Shown here piece by piece: positions 15,702-24,001 of a stretch of 64,000 nucleotides of DNA (its first letter is position 1; each line of letters opens with the position of its first letter). The DNA is from Candidatus Aramenus sp. CH1 (GTDB lineage Archaea > Thermoproteota > Thermoprotei_A > Sulfolobales > Sulfolobaceae), in NCBI GenBank assembly GCA_022678445.1, contig JALBWU010000008.1:13076-77075 (forward strand). Direction: 5' to 3'. Position numbers and translations under genes: made by a program. The notes below the pieces were generated by a model. That model saw only the letters and a program-made list of their open reading frames with translations, ran no database searches and was not told where the DNA came from.

Positions 15702-16500
15702 CTGACCTCCTCCCCACCCTGCGAGGGTTCTGCATAGGTCTAAGGCGTTACTCCCCTTTAAGGGAGATACCCCGTGATGTGAAGAGAAAGGAAAGAGCCA
15801 AAGCGTCGACAATCTTCTTCACTCCTAGTTTCACGATGTTTAACGCTCCGCTAACGTCGCTGTGAAGCTTATGGCCAAGAGGACAGTTTACGACTCCCCT
15901 AGGCCTTCTCGTTACATTTGCGTTATGGTAAGCGCAGAAACGCGAGGTATTGTACTCAACAACTAGGTACGTCTTTACGCCGTGCTCGTGGAGTTTGTTC
16001 GCTAATGCGCCAACTTGCGAAAAGACCAAATTTGAAGTGAGCTTGTTACCCTTATCTTGAGAGATGAAGTAAGGATAGCCCAAGTAAACGGCGGAGACGC
16101 CAAGATCCCATAAGGACTTAGCCAAGTGAGATGCTAAAGTTCTGTAAATGAAGAAGCCTACGGTACAACTTTGCAAATACTCTTTCCCTCTCCATCAACA
16201 CTTCTTCCCTAGCTTCTTGTTCTTGAACCTTCTCAGCCTCGCTTTTCAACTTGTCTAGTTCGGCGATCTTTTTCTGAAAAATAGAAGTAATCGCTCTTAA
16301 CTGCTGAACCACGGTAAAATACAACAGTAAGCTCTCAACAACAACAGTAGCCAACGCGTTTATACCTAAGTCAATTGACGCAACCTTGTTACCTTTAGGC
16401 TTCTCAACTGAATCTCTCTTTCGCCGTGAATAACGAGAGAGTCCTTCATTGGCTTACCGCTTTTCTTTGGGGAAGCGTACTCCAGGAAATGTTTCTACAA
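15702..16500 (-). mobile_element. tnpB: Decayed IS200/IS605-family tnpB element
   Basis: Fragments KPKGNKVASIDLGIN (RuvC-I), VVEYNTSRFCAYH..VVNCPLGHKLHSDVSGALNI (Zn finger and RuvC-III), and right end ..AACCCTCGCAGGGTGGGGAGGAGGTCAG; frames broken; left boundary approximate. Confidence 0.8.
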
Positions 16501-16763
16501 AGTTCTCTAAGACCGCTCTACAAGGTCTATACGCCGCAATAAATTAGCATATTACGATACATAATACGTCCTTACGCTATTTAACAAAAGGGAATTTTAA
16601 TGCTCTTCTTGGAATAGGTACAACGCCTTAATTACTAAGGCACAGTTCTAACTAGTCGCTCTTTAGCTCATTTCTCACGCTGTGGAACATTTCTCGTATC
16701 ATGTATTGTATCGGTATTACCGGCACTATAGATTTAAACTCTAGACTACGTCTTTAAATTATA

Positions 16764-16812
16764 AGTTTCAGTTATCTCTCTAAATCCTTAATTTCGCCAA
16801 GGCATAACTTTC
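16764..16812 (+). promoter_or_regulatory. Three ANTTTC hexamers upstream of the PolB2 cassette (candidate UV/DNA-damage elements)
   Basis: AGTTTC 16764, AATTTC 16790, ACTTTC 16807; ANTTTC is the element described for UV-inducible Sulfolobus promoters. Confidence 0.45.
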
Positions 16813-16816
16813 AATT

Positions 16817-17056
16817 ATGGGTAGAACGCAATCGCCCTTTACCTCCTCAGTAGACAGGGAGGTGGAGAAGCTCGTTAGGCTTGCGAATAGGCTAGGAAAC
16901 CCTTGCTTTAAGGAGGTTGTGCTTGAGGCCTCAACTAGGGTTAGGGACTTTCAAAGCGCCCTTTACGACGAGGTCACAGATCCTCAGGAAGTCGTTCTCT
17001 TATCCCTCATTTCTGTTTTAGCTGAGGTGAAGTGTAACGGAAGGTTACGTCGTTGA
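16817..17056 (+). CDS. Small helical protein of PolB2 operons (arCOG07300-like)
   Basis: MGRTQSPF..EVEKLVRLANRL; position directly upstream of and overlapping polB2. Confidence 0.75.
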   Translation: MGRTQSPFTSSVDREVEKLVRLANRLGNPCFKEVVLEASTRVRDFQSALYDEVTDPQEVVLLSLISVLAEVKCNGRLRR

Positions 17057-18746
17057 CGCAATACCTACTTACAAGGGAGTTTACTTAGTTTTAGATGGCT
17101 TTAGAAAGGTAAAGGTTCCAACAACTTTTCCAATTTACGTGGAAACCCAAAACCCAGAGATAATTGCACAACACCCTTCAGTGGAGTACTACGAGGAGGA
17201 AGTTTGGAAGGACATTCACGAAAACGAAGTGAAGCTTTACAGGTTTGAGCTTACAGATTACAACGCTTACCTTTACATTAGGAAAAAGGCAAAGGTAGTG
17301 AACGAGTTGCCAACTGTGATGGCGCAAACACTTTACAGGCTTAAGGCTTATCCTTTTAGAAAAGTAAGGATTGAAGGAGGCAAAGTAGTGGAGGTTTTTC
17401 CGGAGGAGTTCCCGAAAATTACTTACGCCACTGTAACTACAGTTGATTGGTTTGGCCCTTCCTATTACGGCAAGGAGTTCATAGCCAACGTAAACGGAGT
17501 TGAAATAAAGGAAAAGGTTGGCGAGTTTGATTTAGCAGTTGACGTGGCGGAGTGCTTTGGAATTGCCTGCCACAAGGTAAAGAGCTCAGTCCTCATTAAG
17601 AGAAAAAGGGCTCCAGTGTCTGTTAAGGGACTAATCGAGTGGTCGTTAACTACGAAGACCCCAATAAGGGAACTGGAGGACTCCACAATAGGCAAGGCAC
17701 TCACTACAAACGAAGCTTGGGTTGCCTTGAAAAGAAAGGTAATAGTTCCTGGCGTTGTACCTAGAGTTGAGAAGTTAAGAACTGTTGAACAACTTAAGGA
17801 GGTAGACAAGGGAGGTTTAATTGTTTTCCCAAAGGTAGGGGCATACAACCAAGTTTACCAGCTAGACTTCTCCTCAATGTACCCCTCGCTCATAGTAAAG
17901 TACAACATATCCTTCGACACCGTAGATAAATGCGACGACGTGGTAACTGAAATAGGGCATAGCATCTGCATGAAAGAAAAGGGAATAGTGCCAGAAGCCT
18001 TAGAGTGGTTAGTAAAGAGAAAAGAAGAACTAAAAAGGATTGACGAGGAAAGGGCAGAGGCCATAAAGTGGATTTTAGTTGCGTCATTTGGCTATTTAGG
18101 TTATAGGAATTCAAAGTTTGGAAAAATAGAGGCTTACGAGCTTGTAACCTACTTTGCCAGGAAAACGCTCAGGGAGGCAATAGAGCTAGCTAAGAAATAC
18201 AAGGTTGAAGTATTGCACGGCATAATAGATTCGCTAATAGTTAAGGGAGATAACGTAAAGGAGTTCAGCGAGGCAATAGAGAGATTGACTGGACTGAAGA
18301 TGAAGGTAGAGGAAATGGACTGGGTAATCCTTTTCCCAAGGAGGGACGGAATGCCTTACCCAATGAGGTATTTAGCCAAAAGAAAGGACGGAGAAGTTAA
18401 GGCAAAGGGGTTAATAAGAAGTAACATGCCGAACGTGGTGAAGGAATTCCTAGAGAGAGCTGTAAAGGCAATGGGAAAGGCGAAAAAATTTGAGGAAATA
18501 GACCTTAACGAAATCAAGGAAATAAAGAAGGAGTTGGAGGAGAGGATAATAGAGGGAAAGGAAAGGGCAGACTTCGTAATTTGGGTAAAGGACAGGCCTT
18601 TAGTTAGGGGAGTTAGGGGATTTTACGACGCCAGGGAGGGCTACAAAGGCAGAGACGTTGGATACTACTTGGATTACTTGGAAAGGGAGTACGAGGTGTT
18701 GGTTAACGCTATCCACGGGATTCGAGCTGTTGGACAGGTTAATTGA
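17037..18746 (+). CDS. dpo2: Family B DNA polymerase PolB2/Dpo2, probable ACG start
   Basis: DFSSMYPS, KWILVASFGYLG, degenerate motif C HGIIDS; open frame from 17031 (after TGA at 17028) reading [ACG]EGYVVDAIP, first canonical start only at 17139. Confidence 0.88.
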   Translation, partial: TEGYVVDAIPTYKGVYLVLDGFRKVKVPTTFPIYVETQNPEIIAQHPSVEYYEEEVWKDIHENEVKLYRFELTDYNAYLYIRKKAKVVNELPTVMAQTLYRLKAYPFRKVRIEGGKVVEVFPEEFPKITYATVTTVDWFGPSYYGKEFIANVNGVEIKEKVGEFDLAVDVAECFGIACHKVKSSVLIKRKRAPVSVKGLIEWSLTTKTPIRELEDSTIGKALTTNEAWVALKRKVIVPGVVPRVEKLRTVEQLKEVDKGGLIVFPKVGAYNQVYQLDFSSMYPSLIVKYNISFDTVDKCDDVVTEIGHSICMKEKGIVPEALEWLVKRKEELKRIDEERAEAIKWILVASFGYLGYRNSKFGKIEAYELVTYFARKTLREAIELAKKYKVEVLHGIIDSLIVKGDNVKEFSEAIERLTGLKMKVEEMDWVILFPRRDGMPYPMRYLAKRKDGEVKAKGLIRSNMPNVVKEFLERAVKAMGKAKKFEEIDLNEIKEIKKELEERIIEGKERADFVIWVKDRPLVRGVRGFYDAREGYKGRDVGYYLDYLEREYEVLVNAIHGIRAVGQVN

Positions 18747-19284
18747 GAAAGACGACTTCGTCGAGTTTTATTCCCTAGATAGGGAGTTCCTCTACACTTT
18801 TTACCATAGGGTACTGGTAGTTTCAGCGCCAGTTAAGGTTGTTATTGTTGCAGAAAGGGGAGGACTAGATCCCTTGTTAATTGAGAGGTTTAGGAGGATA
18901 TTTGGGTGGAAGGGAGAAATTTACTTAAGGAGGGCATTCAAGGTTGAAGACGTTAAACCTACAATTGAGGCAATGGAGGAAGTCGAGGGAAATTTGGTCG
19001 TTGTTAATCCTTATCACCACAGAAGGAAATACGCAGAGATAGTATCAGCTTTGAGGAAAAGCGAAGGAAGGAAATTCCTCTTTAGCTTCATGGACAGGGA
19101 GAAGGAAGGATCTATTTTTGGTACCCACAGCGCTCACGCTATCATTAAACTAGAGCCTGGAACAAGGGGATTTAGAGCAGTGCTAAAGAAAAGCGTAACT
19201 TACAGTGAAATTGATATTCCCTTTGGCTTCTGGGAAATTTACGGAAAAAGTGAGGGAGAAGGGTTGATAAAATGGATGATATGA
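18706..19284 (+). CDS. Degenerate RadA/RecA-like protein of PolB2 operons, probable ACG start
   Basis: [ACG]LSTGFELLDRLI resembles the RecA-like N-terminus; no intact Walker A; GAGGTG at 18693-18698. Confidence 0.7.
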   Translation, partial: TLSTGFELLDRLIEKDDFVEFYSLDREFLYTFYHRVLVVSAPVKVVIVAERGGLDPLLIERFRRIFGWKGEIYLRRAFKVEDVKPTIEAMEEVEGNLVVVNPYHHRRKYAEIVSALRKSEGRKFLFSFMDREKEGSIFGTHSAHAIIKLEPGTRGFRAVLKKSVTYSEIDIPFGFWEIYGKSEGEGLIKWMI

Positions 19285-19368
19285 AGGAAATTTCACTGCT
19301 TGAGTTTTTATCCATTATCTGAATTAAATCCGCCAAATTATTTTAAATACATGACGTACATAATCTTA

Positions 19369-20272
19369 ATGATTCAGATAGAACACGTATCCAAGACGTT
19401 CGGCAGGTTCAAAGCTCTAGATGACGTGACCTTTGAAGTTCCGGATGGGCAAATAACAGCCTACGTTGGCCTAAACGGAGCTGGGAAAACAACTACCATG
19501 AGGATAGTTGCTGGGGTAATTTACCCAGATTCCGGAGACGTTAAAGTAGAAGGGCATAGCGTCGTAAGGGAAAAGGTAGAGGCCTCTAAAAACTTGGCTT
19601 GGGTTCCAGAGTTTCCAATTTTCGAGATGGAAATGAAGGCAATTGATTATTTCGTTTACATTGCTGGCTACATGGGGTACTCCAACTTCAGAAGCCAAAA
19701 AGTTAGGAAAAGAGCTCTTGGCTGAAGTTGGATTAGAGGGAATGGAAAACAGAAAGCTCAAGGACTATTCGCAAGGTATGAAGAAGAGATTTGCCTTAGC
19801 CCTTTTAATGATTTCTAACCCAAAGAACTACCTCTTTGACGAAGTTTTAAATGGTCTAGACCCTCAAGGAATAATGTTCTTTAGGGATTTGGCGTTAAAG
19901 CTGAAGAAGGAAGGAAAAGCTGTCCTCTTTTCTTCCCACATACTTTCTGAGGTTGAAAACCTCACAGACAAGGTTGTTTTCATCCACAAGGGAAGGATAG
20001 TTAGGGTAATGAGCATGGACGAGATAAGGAAATCCGCTACACCTAGCCTCTTTATAAGAGTAGAAAATCCAGACAAGGAATTGGTTGACGTTCTCTCAAG
20101 TTACGGTAGCGTTGAACAAAACGGTAACTTAATCTTTGTGAGGAACTTCAAGGGGGATGTAGCTGAAGTCAACTCTAAGCTGTCCCAGAAATACAAGTTA
20201 ATGGAAATAAGGACTGAGTACGCCTCTCTAGAACAAGTGTTCTTCCAGATCATTCAAGGTGAGCAAGAATGA
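19369..20272 (+). pseudogene. ABC transporter ATP-binding protein with +1 frameshift
   Basis: GLNGAGKTT in one frame; YSQGMKKR, LFDEVLNGLD and SSH in another; one extra base near 19684. Confidence 0.85.
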
Positions 20273-21775
20273 GGCCCCTTTTTACACGATTTTAAGAGGT
20301 CATTTCTTAGACTTTCAACCCTGCTGTTATTAGCGCTGTTCATATTAGCAGGCGTGGGTTTAACTACACTAGTTAGCTCTAACCTTAGCTCTTTGACTCC
20401 CTTTAAGTACTCGTACATAGGCTACGCGGTTATTAACGGCACTGATCTACAAATAGCAGGACTTGGAATAGGTACTTCAGGAAACCCGCAGCAGGGATTA
20501 AATGTGACGCTAGGAGTTAGCATTGGTAATGAAATAAAGTACTTCTCCACTATTACAAACTCCTCTGGTATGTTCGCACTAAAGGTAGAAGGAGCCTTGG
20601 CCCCTAACGTTACTTTACAGTTTTCAGAAGCTAACGGTAAGAAGGGGGAAATAATATTGATTAACCCAAACCAGGATTCTATTCCTTTGATTCAGGCAGC
20701 GTGGAACACAACCTTTGAATATGCTTCCCCATACACTCTATGTTCTAGTTATAACACTCCAAGCTTCGCTAATTACGAACTCCCTAGCCAAATTTCCGGG
20801 ATACCGGTGACATATTATCCCAACGGAACGTTAAAGGTGTTCGTAGCCTCTACAGTCTCAGGAAAACTTTACTATAACGTTACGGCTTCGAGTCCTAACA
20901 ATGCTGGCACAAGTGGTTCGGCTCAATCACTCCAGGAGTCAAAATACGCGGGTTACCTTACCCATGGAACACATGTTATCTTACTAGACGTAGGAAAGCT
21001 CGAAAATTTCCCTCCAACGCTCTACGAGCTAAAGCTCAATTTAACTAGTAGTAACCATCAAAATTCAGTAGAAATACCCTTCAATACCGAGTCTAGAGCG
21101 TTTTCCTTGAGTTCACAAGGAATTATAGACCAATTATCAGCGGGAACTTTTGCTACGTTTTTCCCTATAATATTTCTTTATTTGGGTTATGGGCTATTAG
21201 CTAAACCTAAGGATCAAGGAGCTTTGGACTTCCTTCTTTCTAGGCCAGTAACTAGAGGAAGTGTATTTGTGAGTAGATACTTGGGAGGAGTTATGACGGC
21301 AATTGTTAGCTCGGCTTTGTTTGTTCTATCATTGTCAATACCTACAATAGCGTTATTAGGCGTGCCAGTACCAGCACTTGACGCTTTATTATTATTTATG
21401 GGCCTTACGTCAAGCCTAACAGCGTTTTATTCCATTATGGTTATGATAGCGAGCCTAACAAAAAGCTCTGGAAAGTACTTAGGGATCGCCCTCTTTACGT
21501 TTTTCTTCTTCCTCTTTATAGAAACACTAATAGCCACCATCCTACTGCTTAAGGGAATAAACTTTGTTAGTTATCTTCCATACTTGAATTATAATTTACC
21601 GTTGGACACTGTAACCAATGCTATTTCCTCGTCTAGTGGTACGTCTCAATTCTACGCTAACGTGCCACTAGAGATAGTTGGTTCAATATTGTGGATAGCA
21701 GTGCCAACAATGATAGCATACTTAGCCTTTACGGAGTACTTTAAGTGGAGAAAACTAGTTTCAAGCTCAAGATAA
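20269..21775 (+). pseudogene. ABC-2 type permease with +1 frameshift near the start
   Basis: ATG at 20269 overlaps the ATPase stop (ATGA); MRPL then LHDFKRSFLR in the next frame across T5 at 20279-20283; LLSRPVTRGSVFVSRYLG motif. Confidence 0.8.
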
Positions 21776-21806
21776 ACCTTTTTTTATTACTTACTTTTTG
21801 TAAGAT

Positions 21807-23276
21807 GTGAAGTTCCTCAGAGAGTCAACAGGATTGATAAGGGAAATGGGTCCTCTAGACGCTTTTGCCCTTAACTTCTCTTTCATAGGCCCAGCTGCTG
21901 GAATTTCTTACCCTCTTTTCGTTGCCTCATTTTTGCCCGGAGCCAATTGGATTCTAGCGCTATTAATTGGAGCTCTTCTTTCCCTACCTCTTCTCTTCAA
22001 CTACTATTTCCTTTCGCTAAAGTTACCTAGATCTTCTTCTGACTACATTTTCGTTTCAAGGACTTTAGGAGGCATGATGGGAGTAATTTTGGCTATGTCA
22101 TTAATAGTTTCTTTTGCCATGGGTTTCCCAGTTCTGGCTGAGCTTGAAGTTATCATGGTTCTATCCCCAACAATGCAGTTGTTGGGCTATTCCCTTCGCG
22201 ATCCTAACTTAATTTTCATAGGAAATGAATTGACAGACAACGTGAACTACTTAACCTTGGCAACGACGTTGATTATAATTATAGCTTTCCTCATTAGCTC
22301 AAACTCAAAGTGGTTCTTCAAGACATTTAGGTACCTAACTTTCCTGCAAATTATTGGCACTATTGTAATGGTTCTTGGCATGGTAGCCCTAAAATCGGCG
22401 TTTTCGCCCTATTATCAACCGTCGCCTCCTAAGTTTAGTTTCACCGAAACCTTCCTCCTCTCTTCTGTCTTTGTGCTATCCATGTACGCCTTCGTTAACG
22501 CTCCTGCTTTCTTTGCAGGAGAAGCTAGAAAGCCAAGGAAAAGCTTTGCTTTAGGTTACTTTGCCTCCTACGCTGTTGCTACCGCCTTCTCCTTGGCATT
22601 AATCTTGGCTTTGGAGTACAGCATTGGCGTAGGAGGTTTCATTTCTGTCTCTACCGAGAGATGGAACTTGCCTATCTCAACTTCCTCCCTTCTATCCTTT
22701 GGTTCACTTCCTTTCCTTGATAGCTTGCCTTTACTCCTTTTAGTTATTGCGTCTGGTCTCACGTGGTATTTGCTTTACGCTATGATAAACGTTGGCGCCT
22801 CCTCTAGGTTCCTTTTTTCTTTAGCTTTTGACAGGGTACTCCCCTCCTTCTTGGGAGAAATAAAAAGGGGAATTCCAGTCAACGCGTTAATCTTCTCCCT
22901 TTCGCTTTCCCTATTCTTTGAGCTCATAGAGGTTTACTTGGGCTACTCTGTCAGCTTCGCTGTTGACGGGCTTTGGTTCCTGACGTGGAACTATCTCCTA
23001 GTGTCGTTGGCCTCTGCCATCACCGTGAGGAAGGACTTAAAGCTGGGCGTCTCCGGCCTTCTGTCCAGCGTCTCACTCGCCTTAACCGCCTTTATTGCAG
23101 TATTCTACGGGTTAAAGTACGCCAACGTTATCTTCTCTGGGGACGTGTACTTTGACTTATTAACTATTGTCATACCTCCCCTAGCCGGTTTGACTACCTA
23201 CTTGACAGCCAAGCGTGTGAGAAAGGTGCAGGGAATAGACCTTGACTCGACGTTCAGGGAGATACCGCCTGAGTAG
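21807..23276 (+). CDS. APC family amino acid permease
   Basis: FLRESTGLIRE, PRSSSDYIFVSR, SRFLFSLAFDRVLP, FREIPPE terminus. Confidence 0.85.
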   Translation: MKFLRESTGLIREMGPLDAFALNFSFIGPAAGISYPLFVASFLPGANWILALLIGALLSLPLLFNYYFLSLKLPRSSSDYIFVSRTLGGMMGVILAMSLIVSFAMGFPVLAELEVIMVLSPTMQLLGYSLRDPNLIFIGNELTDNVNYLTLATTLIIIIAFLISSNSKWFFKTFRYLTFLQIIGTIVMVLGMVALKSAFSPYYQPSPPKFSFTETFLLSSVFVLSMYAFVNAPAFFAGEARKPRKSFALGYFASYAVATAFSLALILALEYSIGVGGFISVSTERWNLPISTSSLLSFGSLPFLDSLPLLLLVIASGLTWYLLYAMINVGASSRFLFSLAFDRVLPSFLGEIKRGIPVNALIFSLSLSLFFELIEVYLGYSVSFAVDGLWFLTWNYLLVSLASAITVRKDLKLGVSGLLSSVSLALTAFIAVFYGLKYANVIFSGDVYFDLLTIVIPPLAGLTTYLTAKRVRKVQGIDLDSTFREIPPE

Positions 23277-23287
23277 TGCGCGTGAGG

Positions 23288-24001
23288 CTATTTTAACTCG
23301 GTCATCAACCTCGCTACGACGCTCTCTATTGACTCGTCCTCCCTGCCCATTGCCTTCAACTGCTGTATAGATCCCTGCCACACCAAGGAGCCATTGGATA
23401 TCATAAGCACGTAATCGGTGAGTCTGAGGGCTATGGACATTATGTGGGTGGAAATGAGGAATGTGGAGTCCATTTTCTTGAGCAGTGAGATCACCATCTC
23501 TTGCGTTGGGATGTCTAAGTAATTGAGGGGCTCGTCAAGTAGGAGGACCTTGGGGTTGTGCATTATTGCCAAGGCTATTGCCAACTTCTGCTGGTTTCCC
23601 CTTGATAACTTGCCCGCTAAGACCCCCTGGTACTGCTCCAGCCCCAGTAAGTGTGTCATCCTCTCCGCTACCTCCCTTGGATTTTCAAGTTCCCTTAAGG
23701 TGGCTATGTACTCGAGGTTCTCCCTAACCGTCAAGTTCCTGTAAGGCATGGGGTCCTCAGGCAAGTAGCCCAAGAGCCTCTTTGCCCCTGTGGAGTCTGG
23801 GGGATAGCCCATGACCTTGACCTCCCCTACGTCCGGTTTCATTAATCCTGAGAGTATCTTCATTGTTGTAGACTTCCCGGCACCGTTAGGCCCTAAGAGC
23901 GCGTACTTCCCCCCACAGGGCACAGTAAAGCTCAAGTTATTTAAAGCCAAGAAGCTACCGTAACGCTTCACAACGTTTCTCGCTTCAATACAATACTCCA
24001 T
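23288..24001 (-). CDS. ABC transporter ATP-binding protein
   Basis: [25 protein letters not shown] motifs. Confidence 0.9.

Follow-up and report, generated by a model that had tools for sequence, protein, structure and literature searches.

A putative ACG start codon for polB2 and other genes in a Sulfolobaceae archaeon

At which codon does translation of polB2 begin in the thermoacidophilic archaeon Candidatus Aramenus sp. CH1, if the conserved N-terminus of this DNA-damage polymerase is encoded ahead of any canonical start codon in its frame? An earlier note on this locus, which lies in a window of 64,000 nucleotides (the whole stretch of DNA that was analyzed, to which all positions at the locus refer), had pointed to an ACG codon at 17037. 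Comparisons of sequences and predicted structures suggest that translation of polB2 starts at this ACG, and we consider it likely that ACG is a working, probably weak, Shine-Dalgarno (SD)-dependent start codon in this clade.

The PPB2-polB2-iRadA operon

On the forward strand, polB2 occupies the second place in an operon of the order PPB2-polB2-iRadA. The first gene (16817-17056) encodes a small helical PolB2 partner of 79 residues that starts with MGRT, and its last 20 nucleotides overlap polB2. In other Sulfolobaceae, 79-residue homologues that share 63-79% sequence identity with it are encoded ahead of polB2. Its N-terminal MGRT motif and its place in the operon match those given for PPB2/arCOG07300 by Timinskas et al. 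2025 (PMC11791011), and on these sequence features we identify the open reading frame (ORF) as PPB2. An older annotation refers to the upstream 79-residue ORF as 'dpo2 amino-end' (PMC2246294). That it represents the true N-terminus of PolB2 was ruled out, the ORF being PPB2 and the PolB fold beginning, in the predicted structure, at the MEGY strand.

Upstream of the PPB2 ATG, the promoter region (16764-16795, forward strand) displays two ANTTTC hexamers, AGTTTC at 16764-16769 and AATTTC at 16790-16795, which we regard as candidate DNA-damage-responsive elements (DDREs) with a function inferred from their sequence. The first of these, together with its flank, resembles the DDRE consensus of S. 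islandicus, AATAGTTTCRGWDTACTCWS, located -23 to -55 from the ATG (PMC6061795). This DDRE-like ANTTTC element would be the only sign of a DNA-damage-inducible expression of PolB2.

As proposed here, the polB2 (Dpo2) coding sequence (17037-18746, forward strand) comprises 569 codons followed by a TGA stop. The ORF encodes a family-B DNA polymerase (Pfam PF00136, E = 7e-13); the top NCBIfam match of its product, NF004416, fell under the cut-off of that family. The product is 55-69% identical to Sulfolobaceae proteins named DNA polymerase II and 44-79% identical to Sulfolobaceae PolB2, and the other PolB paralogues of the same genome match it at 28-38% only. Its sequence contains HGIIDSL and EVDKGG, that is, a degenerate catalytic motif (IID for DxD) and a D(K/R) loop motif, both of which have been described for PolB2 (PMC11791011), and Asp257 and Asp398 are invariant in an alignment of 35 sequences. 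An AlphaFold2 model of the product starting from the ACG has a mean pLDDT of 90.1. By domain, motif and operon criteria, the sequence places the protein in the PolB2 (Dpo2) group of family-B DNA polymerases. A single-protein search for related loci returned no relatives in genome contigs and one distant locus in metagenome contigs, and no other contig encoding the 535-residue polB2 product (see below) was found.

A conserved third gene is located directly downstream of polB2 in all relatives. In the window it extends from 18706 to 19284 on the forward strand, with a proposed start at ACG 18706-18708, in which C 18707 is the third base of an AAC codon of polB2. Seven nucleotides before this ACG lies an SD sequence, GAGGTG (18693-18698, forward strand), inside the 3' end of polB2, the stop codon of which follows 38 nucleotides past the ACG. 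Orthologues have ATG or GTG at the codon corresponding to ACG 18706 or at the next one, resulting in an N-terminus of the form M-L-x-T-G-F-x-x-L-D. We considered TTG 18658 and TTG 18730 as starts of this gene and rejected both; the former would add a nonconserved leader and the latter would strip the conserved motif. Sequence searches with the protein gave no matches in Pfam or the PDB, and its homology to RadA is undetectable by sequence. We refer to it as iRadA-like, an assignment resting on synteny and on PMC11791011. Three other genomes, which are S. acidocaldarius-like, have CTG at the iRadA start, and ACG is found on both downstream genes of the operon in this genome only. The operon is otherwise intact-looking, with the MGRT motif in PPB2, the IID and DK motifs in PolB2 and the DDRE-like promoter element.

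The start of polB2

The polB2 frame reads TGA (17028-17030), AGT, GTA and ACG (17037-17039, forward strand), and continues with GAA GGT TAC GTC GTT GAC GCA ATA CCT. The TGA, two codons upstream of the ACG, forbids an extension of the frame, just as the earlier note had read it. We could also confirm that the frame is free of ATG, GTG and TTG between the TGA and GTG 17139, the latter lying 34 codons past the ACG. C 17038, in the middle of the proposed initiation codon, falls on the third position of an AAC (Asn) codon of PPB2.

Ahead of the ACG lies the polB2 SD sequence TGAGGTGA (17023-17030, forward strand), which is located inside the PPB2 coding region and has as its last three bases the TGA by which the polB2 frame is closed upstream. 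It is composed of GAGGTGA at 17024-17030 and the preceding T and constitutes an 8-nucleotide complement of the 3' end of the genome's own 16S rRNA, GGAUCACCUCA. Its spacing had been called ideal for the ACG and, indeed, the AGGTG-N7-ACG spacing in polB2 is the modal spacing of canonical SD-led starts in this genome.

We aligned the gene with 35 distinct polB2 loci from the same family, Sulfolobaceae. All of these start with ATG, GTG or TTG, the window being the sole exception. At the position aligned with the ACG, the start codon is ATG in 24 and GTG in 4 of the 35 orthologues, and in the other 7 a canonical start lies one or two codons away. The expectation that Met1 of Dpo2 homologues would align with ACG 17037 was thus borne out for 35 of 35, at or within two codons, which places the pattern beyond chance.

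The N-terminal 33 codons ahead of any canonical start (17040-17138, forward strand) were suspected from the beginning to encode a real PolB2 N-terminus, and this view is supported by our data: the segment is conserved, and its residues are modeled as four β-strands with pLDDT values of 94-96. Asp7, Pro10, Thr30, Pro32 and Tyr34 are invariant across 35 sequences. A comparison of these codons with those of a sister species (G003) yielded a pN of 0.11 and a pS of 0.76. That species has GTG as its polB2 start and the closest relative of the genome under study (G002) is without the operon, the polB2 ACG being seen in one genome alone.

Public gene calls start the protein further downstream. The NCBI annotation (PGAP) uses ATA 17061-17063, yielding a 561-residue product that begins with MPTYKG, and the JGI and Logan gene calls (Prodigal) use GTG 17139-17141, yielding a product of 535 residues (both on the forward strand). 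We rejected ATA 17061, which has no SD sequence at a usable spacing and would cut β-strand 1, as well as GTG 17139, which has no SD sequence upstream and with which four conserved β-strands would be lost. The start codons of NCBI translation table 11 include CTG, ATT, ATC and ATA; ACG is not among them and is therefore not called by any pipeline. One polB2 gene would thus carry two wrong public N-termini. Since ACG is barred in prokaryotic code tables and gene finders, every gene of this kind would be misannotated; nurA, purQ and thiD (see below) would be truncated by 19-34 residues in annotation, and genuine structural elements would be missing from such proteins if they were expressed or modeled according to database entries.

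Probable ACG starts across the genome and the clade

The earlier note had treated the ACG as a matter of polB2, which turned out to be too narrow. Nine other genes in this genome have an ACG that is aligned with the ATG, GTG or TTG of the relatives, in the layout SD-N6/7-ACG. These genes encode the iRadA-like protein, NurA, a PfkB/ribokinase-like protein, a small protein, two ABC-2 permeases, an ATPase, PurQ and ThiD. For six of the nine, the ACG is kept in sister species, the ORFs are intact and the N-terminal segment is under purifying selection. Considering the genes with an orthologue in the respective genome, the ACG is kept at 6 of 6 in G002 and at 4 of 7 in G003. This distribution follows phylogeny, which argues for substitutions rather than errors.

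Where both genomes have ACG, the segments between the ACG and the first canonical start showed dN/dS values of 0.028/0.159 for the comparison with G002 and 0.060/0.435 for that with G003. Values of 0.14-0.18 were obtained for the N-terminal segments of purQ, thiD and nurA, and it is by analogy with these three only that the N-terminal segment of polB2 would be said to evolve as coding sequence while its start is ACG. These comparisons indicate that the ACG start is a genome-wide and clade-wide habit and not a peculiarity of polB2. Our literature search returned no published report of ACG starts in archaea or Sulfolobus.

The spacing between SD sequence and ACG was analyzed for the whole genome. 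At ORF 5' ends, AGGTG-Nk-ACG occurs 2, 0, 0, 4, 7, 0, 3, 1 and 3 times for k = 3 to 11, with the peak at N7, as for ATG and TTG. ACA, ACC and ACT were found 1, 1 and 0 times, respectively, at AGGTG-N7 (binomial P = 9e-4). With strict filters applied, ACG ranks first among noncanonical codons at N6/7, with 6 cases observed versus 1.26 expected (P = 0.002). Without spacing or geometry filters, the genome-wide enrichment of SD sequences before ACG is weak (rank 7), the signal emerging only with N6-7 spacing and overlap geometry. Candidates with an adjacent canonical start were dropped (contig and position, minus strand marked: C23:51504(-), C19:90421, C23:6505(-), C24:21697(-), C22:302828(-) and C21:29116), and C12:226150, C19:163926 and C8:14843 are ambiguous.

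At 5 of 7 checked sites, the C occupies the third position of an AAC codon of an overlapping upstream ORF that stops 5-38 nucleotides past the ACG. The sequence around the ACG of purQ and thiD agrees with this overlap picture, with the C as a wobble base of the upstream gene. Altogether, the C holds the third position of a C-preferring upstream codon at seven checked sites. In a raw scan, 11 of 24 ACG candidates, a set that contains at least two false sites, had this overlap frame, versus 18 of 133 ATG starts (P = 7e-4). In this lineage, 83-86% of NAY codons end in C. Such a codon bias in the overlapping gene partly explains the conservation of the C, which is therefore no proof of selection for ACG.

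Proposed mechanism, alternatives and relation to known systems

The codon bias offers an attractive explanation for the origin of these starts: most likely, they arose by T-to-C substitution where the T of an ATG was the wobble base of an upstream Asn or Asp codon. In polB2, the 8-nucleotide pairing of TGAGGTGA would hold the small ribosomal subunit with the ACG in the P site at optimal spacing. The PPB2 stop codon (TGA, 17054-17056, forward strand), 17 nucleotides past the ACG, is the predicted coupling point, at which terminating PPB2 ribosomes would create a local supply of ribosomal subunits for polB2. The ordinary initiator Met-tRNA (anticodon CAU) would then read the ACG despite the central C-A mismatch, giving a full-length product that begins Met-Glu-Gly-Tyr, at an output that is probably lower than that from an ATG. 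We propose the same mechanism for the iRadA-like gene (ACG 18706) and for at least eight more genes of the genome that are led by an SD sequence. The N-terminal peptide expected of full-length PolB2 is MEGYVVDAIPTYK.

A dedicated ACG-reading initiator tRNA was ruled out, the single initiator tRNA having the anticodon CAU; tRNA-Thr(CGU) is an ordinary elongator, and a second 'Thr(cgt)' call by ARAGORN is actually an intron-bearing tRNA-Met. The initiator tRNA of the clade differs from that of other Sulfolobaceae at one T-loop base only, with an unchanged anticodon arm. A lineage-specific change in aIF1, which might have accounted for relaxed start selection, was not found either; its sequence is essentially as in relatives without ACG use.

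An alternative that we consider improbable is that polB2 (and iRadA) has been inactivated or impaired by a change from ATG to ACG, leaving a fresh pseudogene or a truncated product from ATA 17061 or GTG 17139, the downstream starts used by public annotations. PolB2 is dispensable in model Sulfolobales (PMC8100216, PMC7785828), and its loss even lets S. islandicus grow slightly better (PMC8100216). No PolB2 operon turned up in 6 of the 47 genomes of the family, among them the closest relative, G002, and with PolB2 being dispensable and missing from some genomes, a recent loss of its start would be tolerated. However, two ACG starts in one operon are accompanied by 569 and 192 codons without stops or frameshifts, and the ATA and GTG lack an SD sequence and would remove one to four conserved β-strands. 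Moreover, the SD-N7-ACG arrangement is also present at nurA, purQ and thiD, where it is kept across species with a dN/dS of about 0.15 ahead of any canonical start. That these three should be dead genes is most improbable; in S. islandicus, the nurA operon is essential.

Alternatively, ACG could become AUG before translation by C-to-U editing at specific mRNA sites in polB2, iRadA, nurA, purQ, thiD and the others. The sole support for such editing is that, at ten sites, the change always affects the second base of the start codon and is always C for T. These sites share no context beyond the SD sequence, the base at -1 being A or G and that at -2 varying, and near-cognate initiation accounts for the data without new machinery. 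To our knowledge, there is no archaeal case of C-to-U editing of mRNA, nor was one found in our literature search. We regard editing as very unlikely; if true, archaea would have their first known system for editing mRNA.

A programmed +1 frameshift in the 20-nucleotide overlap, fusing PPB2 to PolB2, would make a polB2 start codon unnecessary. The polB2 gene is indeed in the +1 frame relative to PPB2, there are two CGT codons in the overlap ahead of the TGA, and a single ORF was once described for the gene of S. solfataricus, with one natural PPB2-PolB2 fusion also on record (PMC2246294, PMC11791011). Such a fusion is scarcely credible in light of the overlap, which is without a slippery motif, and of the published model (PMC11791011), in which PPB2 is a separate trimeric subunit that needs a free N-terminal arm; the PolB fold is moreover predicted to begin at the MEGY strand. 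The same geometry is found at unrelated pairs for which a fusion is implausible, e.g., at nurA with its upstream 903-codon ORF, probably rad50. The overlap frame itself is expected, because T-to-C is synonymous in the upstream gene only in that frame.

Finally, a sequencing or assembly error with T as the true base at 17038 would fit the presence of the polB2 ACG allele in one genome only but is hardly believable, given that an independent Logan assembly yields the same 535-residue gene call and thus has no ATG there either, that a second ACG start lies within the same operon, and that the same substitution in other genes is common to separately sequenced species in a tree-like pattern.

If ACG is indeed used as a start codon, an ACG-CAU mismatch is tolerated in an archaeon whose initiation factors are of the eukaryotic type when the P site is fixed by strong SD pairing, and the trait is stable across species. 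A simple origin suggests itself, in which the codon bias of an overlapping upstream gene erodes the ATG of the downstream one. The mutasome has a predicted stoichiometry of 3 PPB2 : 1 PolB2 : 1 iRadA (PMC11791011), and weaker starts on both single-copy subunits fit this ratio. The presence of ACG on both suggests a built-in setting of the subunit ratio or an error-prone polymerase that is kept scarce. The question is directly testable, since Sulfolobales are amenable to genetics, to translation in vitro and to cryo-EM of initiation complexes; in Haloferax, harringtonine-type arrest is effective for the profiling of initiation sites (PMC7261190).

In plant organelles, the ACG of ndhD and psbL is converted to AUG by C-to-U editing. 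The genomic ACG at a conserved Met1 position is similar here; in contrast to plant organelles, no editing or editing machinery is known for archaeal mRNA. Another parallel is initiation at ACG in eukaryotes and their viruses, as for AAV VP2, Sendai virus C' and plant AGAMOUS. There, as proposed here, an ACG stands where an AUG is expected, is presumably read by initiator Met-tRNA via a central C-A mismatch and gives a reduced but useful output. The core of start-codon selection, e/aIF1, 1A and 2, is common to archaea and eukaryotes (PMC6412873). Whereas eukaryotic ACG starts depend on scanning and Kozak context and serve as alternative starts for isoforms, those proposed here would be placed by an SD sequence in an overlapping polycistronic operon, would be the only start of the protein and recur at housekeeping genes.

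Weak noncanonical starts are also found in bacteria, such as the AUU of infC and pcnB. As in those cases, a conserved suboptimal codon behind a good ribosome-binding site has been kept over evolution, but unlike for infC, no autoregulatory logic is evident for the ACG starts. The arrangement also resembles termination-reinitiation coupling, in that the downstream start and its SD sequence are located inside an upstream ORF whose stop is 5-38 nucleotides beyond. Huber et al. reportedly found, in 2019, translational coupling at overlapping gene pairs of archaea and bacteria. The characterized cases have overlaps of 1 or 4 nucleotides and canonical starts, whereas here the overlaps are 8-41 nucleotides, the start is ACG and the coupling is putative.

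The operon itself is like the PolB2 mutasome operon PPB2-PolB2-iRadA described by Timinskas et al. 2025 (PMC11791011), the Dpo2 of S. islandicus being treated in PMC7390963 and PMC8764526. The likeness extends to the gene order, the MGRT arm of PPB2, the IID and DK motifs of PolB2 and the DDRE-like promoter element.

Start codon of polB2

The gene polB2 (Dpo2), which encodes a family-B DNA polymerase, is the second gene of the PPB2-polB2-iRadA operon. Its frame reads TGA (17028-30), AGT, GTA, ACG (17037), GAA GGT TAC GTC GTT GAC GCA ATA CCT, the TGA lying inside GTG AAG of the window sequence GCT GAG GTG AAG TGT AAC GGA. The open frame of 571 codons matches a family-B DNA polymerase (PF00136, E 7e-13; NCBIfam type-B polymerase models also match). 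ORF and codon listings confirm the claim of the earlier note that this TGA is in frame and that no canonical start (ATG, GTG or TTG) occurs before GTG 17139, 34 codons past the ACG. The GAGGTGA noted at 17024-17030 ahead of the ACG is likewise present and, together with position 17023, forms a Shine-Dalgarno (SD) sequence, TGAGGTGA (17023-30), an 8-nt match to the 3' end of the genome's own 16S rRNA, GGAUCACCUCA.

The protein database contains three versions of the polB2 product: the JGI call and an independent Logan assembly give a 535-aa protein from GTG 17139, and the NCBI call a 561-aa protein with the N-terminus MPTYKG from ATA 17061. No SD sequence precedes either codon in the window sequence. 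No pipeline could choose the ACG, because table 11 does not allow it as a start.

We searched 31, then 47 related genomes with the PolB2 protein and noted, for every match, which codon lies opposite ACG 17037 in the alignment; this yielded 35 distinct orthologous loci. The aligned codon is ATG in 24 and GTG in four, including sister species G003, the nearest polB2 relative. Met1 thus coincides exactly with the ACG in 28 of 35 orthologues, the comparison that the earlier note had suggested as a check, and lies within one or two codons in the other seven (ATG one codon upstream in four; ATG, GTG or TTG two codons downstream in three). The window's T(ACG)-E-G-Y-V-V-D-A-I-P is the sole exception to the consensus M-E-G-Y-V/L-V/I-D-A-x-P among the loci compared. 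Also borne out is the suspicion that a start at GTG 17139 deletes a genuine N-terminus: the 33 residues following the ACG are conserved, with D7, P10, T30, P32 and Y34 invariant in the 35-sequence alignment, and comparison of this segment with G003 gives pN 0.11 and pS 0.76. In an AlphaFold2 model built from the same alignment (mean pLDDT 90.1), residues 2-36 form four beta-strands (pLDDT 94-96). According to this model, a start at GTG 17139 would remove all four strands and one at ATA 17061 would truncate the first. Judging from the sequence comparisons, polB2 most probably starts at ACG 17037, which would be a real, weak, SD-dependent start.

Proposed ACG starts in other genes and in sister species

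Across the whole assembly, we scanned long open frames at their 5' ends for an SD-like motif followed by each codon. Of the codons that precede the first canonical start, ACG has the fourth-strongest association with a 6-nt SD, directly behind GTG, ATG and TTG. With 3 to 11 nt between AGGTG and the codon, ACG counts were 2, 0, 0, 4, 7, 0, 3, 1 and 3, peaking at 7 nt as for ATG and TTG. At that spacing, ACG occurs seven times versus once each for ACA and ACC and never for ACT (P 9e-4). Under strict filters, at 6 or 7 nt, it is the top non-canonical codon (6 observed versus 1.26 expected, P 0.002); in a looser genome scan, the SD-ACG enrichment is weak.

Orthologue alignment revealed ten genes with ACG at their relatives' Met1, namely polB2, the iRadA-like gene and eight elsewhere. 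These eight comprise nurA (C2:42184; relatives ATG 11, TTG 1, ATA 1; next canonical start 34 codons downstream), a PfkB/ribokinase-like gene (C19:27298; relatives ATG/GTG/TTG; stop directly upstream), genes for a small protein (C19:109279) and an ABC-2 permease (C21:112710), both with ATG in relatives, an ATPase gene (C21:124611, minus strand; relatives ATG/TTG; next canonical start 51 codons downstream, and a GTG three codons upstream inside the SD), purQ (C19:144703, minus strand; relatives TTG/ATG/CTG; next canonical start 30 codons downstream), thiD (C5:14734, minus strand; relatives ATG/TTG; next canonical start 19 codons downstream) and a second ABC-2 permease gene (C5:21776; relatives TTG/GTG/ATG). 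The polB2 ACG is most probably one of at least ten ACG starts that we propose in this genome.

ATA or ATT 7 nt past an AGGTG and near the upstream stop of long ORFs marks C3:9790, C22:193295 and C22:299450 (all minus strand) as possible further non-canonical starts. Near-cognate Met1 codons also occur in other genera, with CTG at purQ (L140, G008) and ATA at nurA (L065, G014). The ABC-2 permease orthologue at G001:C1:135468-136639 (L168, L170) contains in-frame TAG and TAA stops and is probably a pseudogene.

Sister species G002, with 93-98% amino-acid identity in the ACG-start genes, has ACG in all six that have an orthologue there, all outside the operon. G003 (82-93% identity) has ACG in four of seven, all four among the six of G002; of the remaining three, nurA and the small-protein gene have ATG, and polB2 has GTG. 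This distribution matches the tree ((G000,G002),G003), G000 being the window's own genome, and therefore reflects fixed substitutions in separately sequenced genomes rather than errors. Where both genomes carry ACG, the segments between it and the first canonical start evolve under purifying selection (dN 0.028 and dS 0.159 for G000-G002 pairs; dN 0.060 and dS 0.435 for G000-G003 pairs), and are therefore translated. At least one of the genes, nurA, belongs to an operon essential in S. islandicus.

Possible origin of the proposed ACG starts

At five of seven sites examined, an overlapping upstream gene stops 5-38 nt past the ACG and reads its C as the wobble base of an AAC codon; around the ACGs of purQ and thiD, the neighbouring bases likewise show this C as the end of an AAC or GAC codon. 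PPB2 and polB2 overlap by 20 nt, the PPB2 TGA lying 17 nt past ACG 17037. In this genome, 83-86% of NAY codons end in C. The overlap frame with C as upstream third base was found for 11 of 24 SD-ACG candidates versus 18 of 133 SD-ATG starts (P 7e-4) in a raw scan; at least two of the 24 candidates are false, having a canonical start right beside them. ACG is almost absent (one site) from ATGA overlaps, the other frequent type, where the T cannot change because it is part of the upstream gene's stop codon. In the simplest model, a synonymous AAT to AAC or GAT to GAC change in the upstream gene would erode the downstream ATG to ACG, and would be tolerated because that codon can still support SD-anchored, coupled initiation, the ordinary Met-tRNAi presumably pairing with ACG via a C-A mismatch.

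The genome has a single initiator tRNA (C21:99122-99198, L171) with a normal CAU anticodon and GGG/CCC stem, identical in G002 and G003. Its sole difference from other Sulfolobaceae is one base of the T loop, TTCAAGT versus TTCAAAT; the anticodon arm is identical. The tRNA-Thr(CGU) is an ordinary elongator, a second ARAGORN tRNA-Thr call is a mis-parsed tRNA-Met, and aIF1 shows no clade-specific change relative to relatives. Nothing in these components points to special machinery for ACG starts.

The operon, alternative explanations and precedents

The forward-strand 79-aa ORF at 16817-17056, starting MGRT, corresponds to PPB2 (arCOG07300), and 79-aa homologues lie upstream of polB2 in other Sulfolobaceae. 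PPB2 is a small helical subunit predicted to form a 3:1:1 complex with PolB2 and iRadA, an inactivated RadA homologue (Timinskas et al., PMC11791011). The ORF was formerly labelled 'DNA polymerase II amino-end' (sso8124) because it was taken as a frameshifted N-terminus (PMC2246294); a role as polymerase N-terminus is rejected, as the PolB fold begins at MEGY in the AlphaFold2 model. GC content is 42-44% in the block that contains the operon and its neighbours (16001-24000); it is 48.9% in the genome and 52% over the window.

The iRadA-like gene repeats the polB2 layout, with GAGGTG (18693-98), 7 nt and ACG (18706). Its orthologues have ATG or GTG at this codon or the next one, giving M-L-x-T-G-F-x-x-L-D. 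A start at TTG 18658 would add a non-conserved leader, which is the polB2 C-terminus in another frame, and one at TTG 18730 would lose the conserved motif; both are poor alternatives. In three S. acidocaldarius-like Sulfolobaceae genomes (L002:3206, L004:3218, L027:3221), the codon at Met1 of iRadA is CTG, preceded by GAGGTGA, and the next canonical start follows only after 18-42 codons. The gene probably starts at this CTG, so near-cognate starts on iRadA would not be unique to the window's genome.

Alternatively, polB2 may simply have lost its start. PolB2 is dispensable according to one published study (PMC8100216), and searches of 47 family genomes failed to find its operon in 6. The closest relative, G002 (93-98% protein identity elsewhere), lacks the operon and has no PolB2 match, which could reflect acquisition by G000 or loss from G002. 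We nevertheless regard start loss as unlikely, because the 2.3-kb operon is flawless apart from its two ACG start codons, whose layout is exactly that of conserved housekeeping genes. The operon also looks functional because the IID and DK motifs are retained in the PolB2 translation and a damage-response-like element lies upstream: of two ANTTTC hexamers at 16764-16795, the first (AGTTTC, -53 to -48 of the PPB2 ATG) and its flanks resemble the S. islandicus Orc1-2 consensus, making it a candidate element. RNA editing of the start codon, for which the data examined offer no support, is very improbable. Hardly credible are a +1 frameshift fusion, equally unsupported in these data, and a sequencing error, against which stand the agreeing Logan gene call and the recurrence of the ACG pattern in other genomes.

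Initiation at ACG is an established near-cognate event in eukaryotes and their viruses, as are weak AUU and CUG starts in bacteria and ACG-to-AUG editing in plant organelles. Our literature searches found no published report of ACG starts in archaea. In Haloferax ribosome profiling, near-cognate codons accounted for about 30% of the putative alternative initiation sites and were set aside by the authors (PMC7261190). Relative to these precedents, the proposed ACG starts in Sulfolobaceae, a lineage close to genetically tractable models, would be new, as would their explanation by overlap and codon bias and a PolB2 operon carrying two of them; the putative iRadA CTG starts of S. acidocaldarius-like genomes are testable in a model organism.
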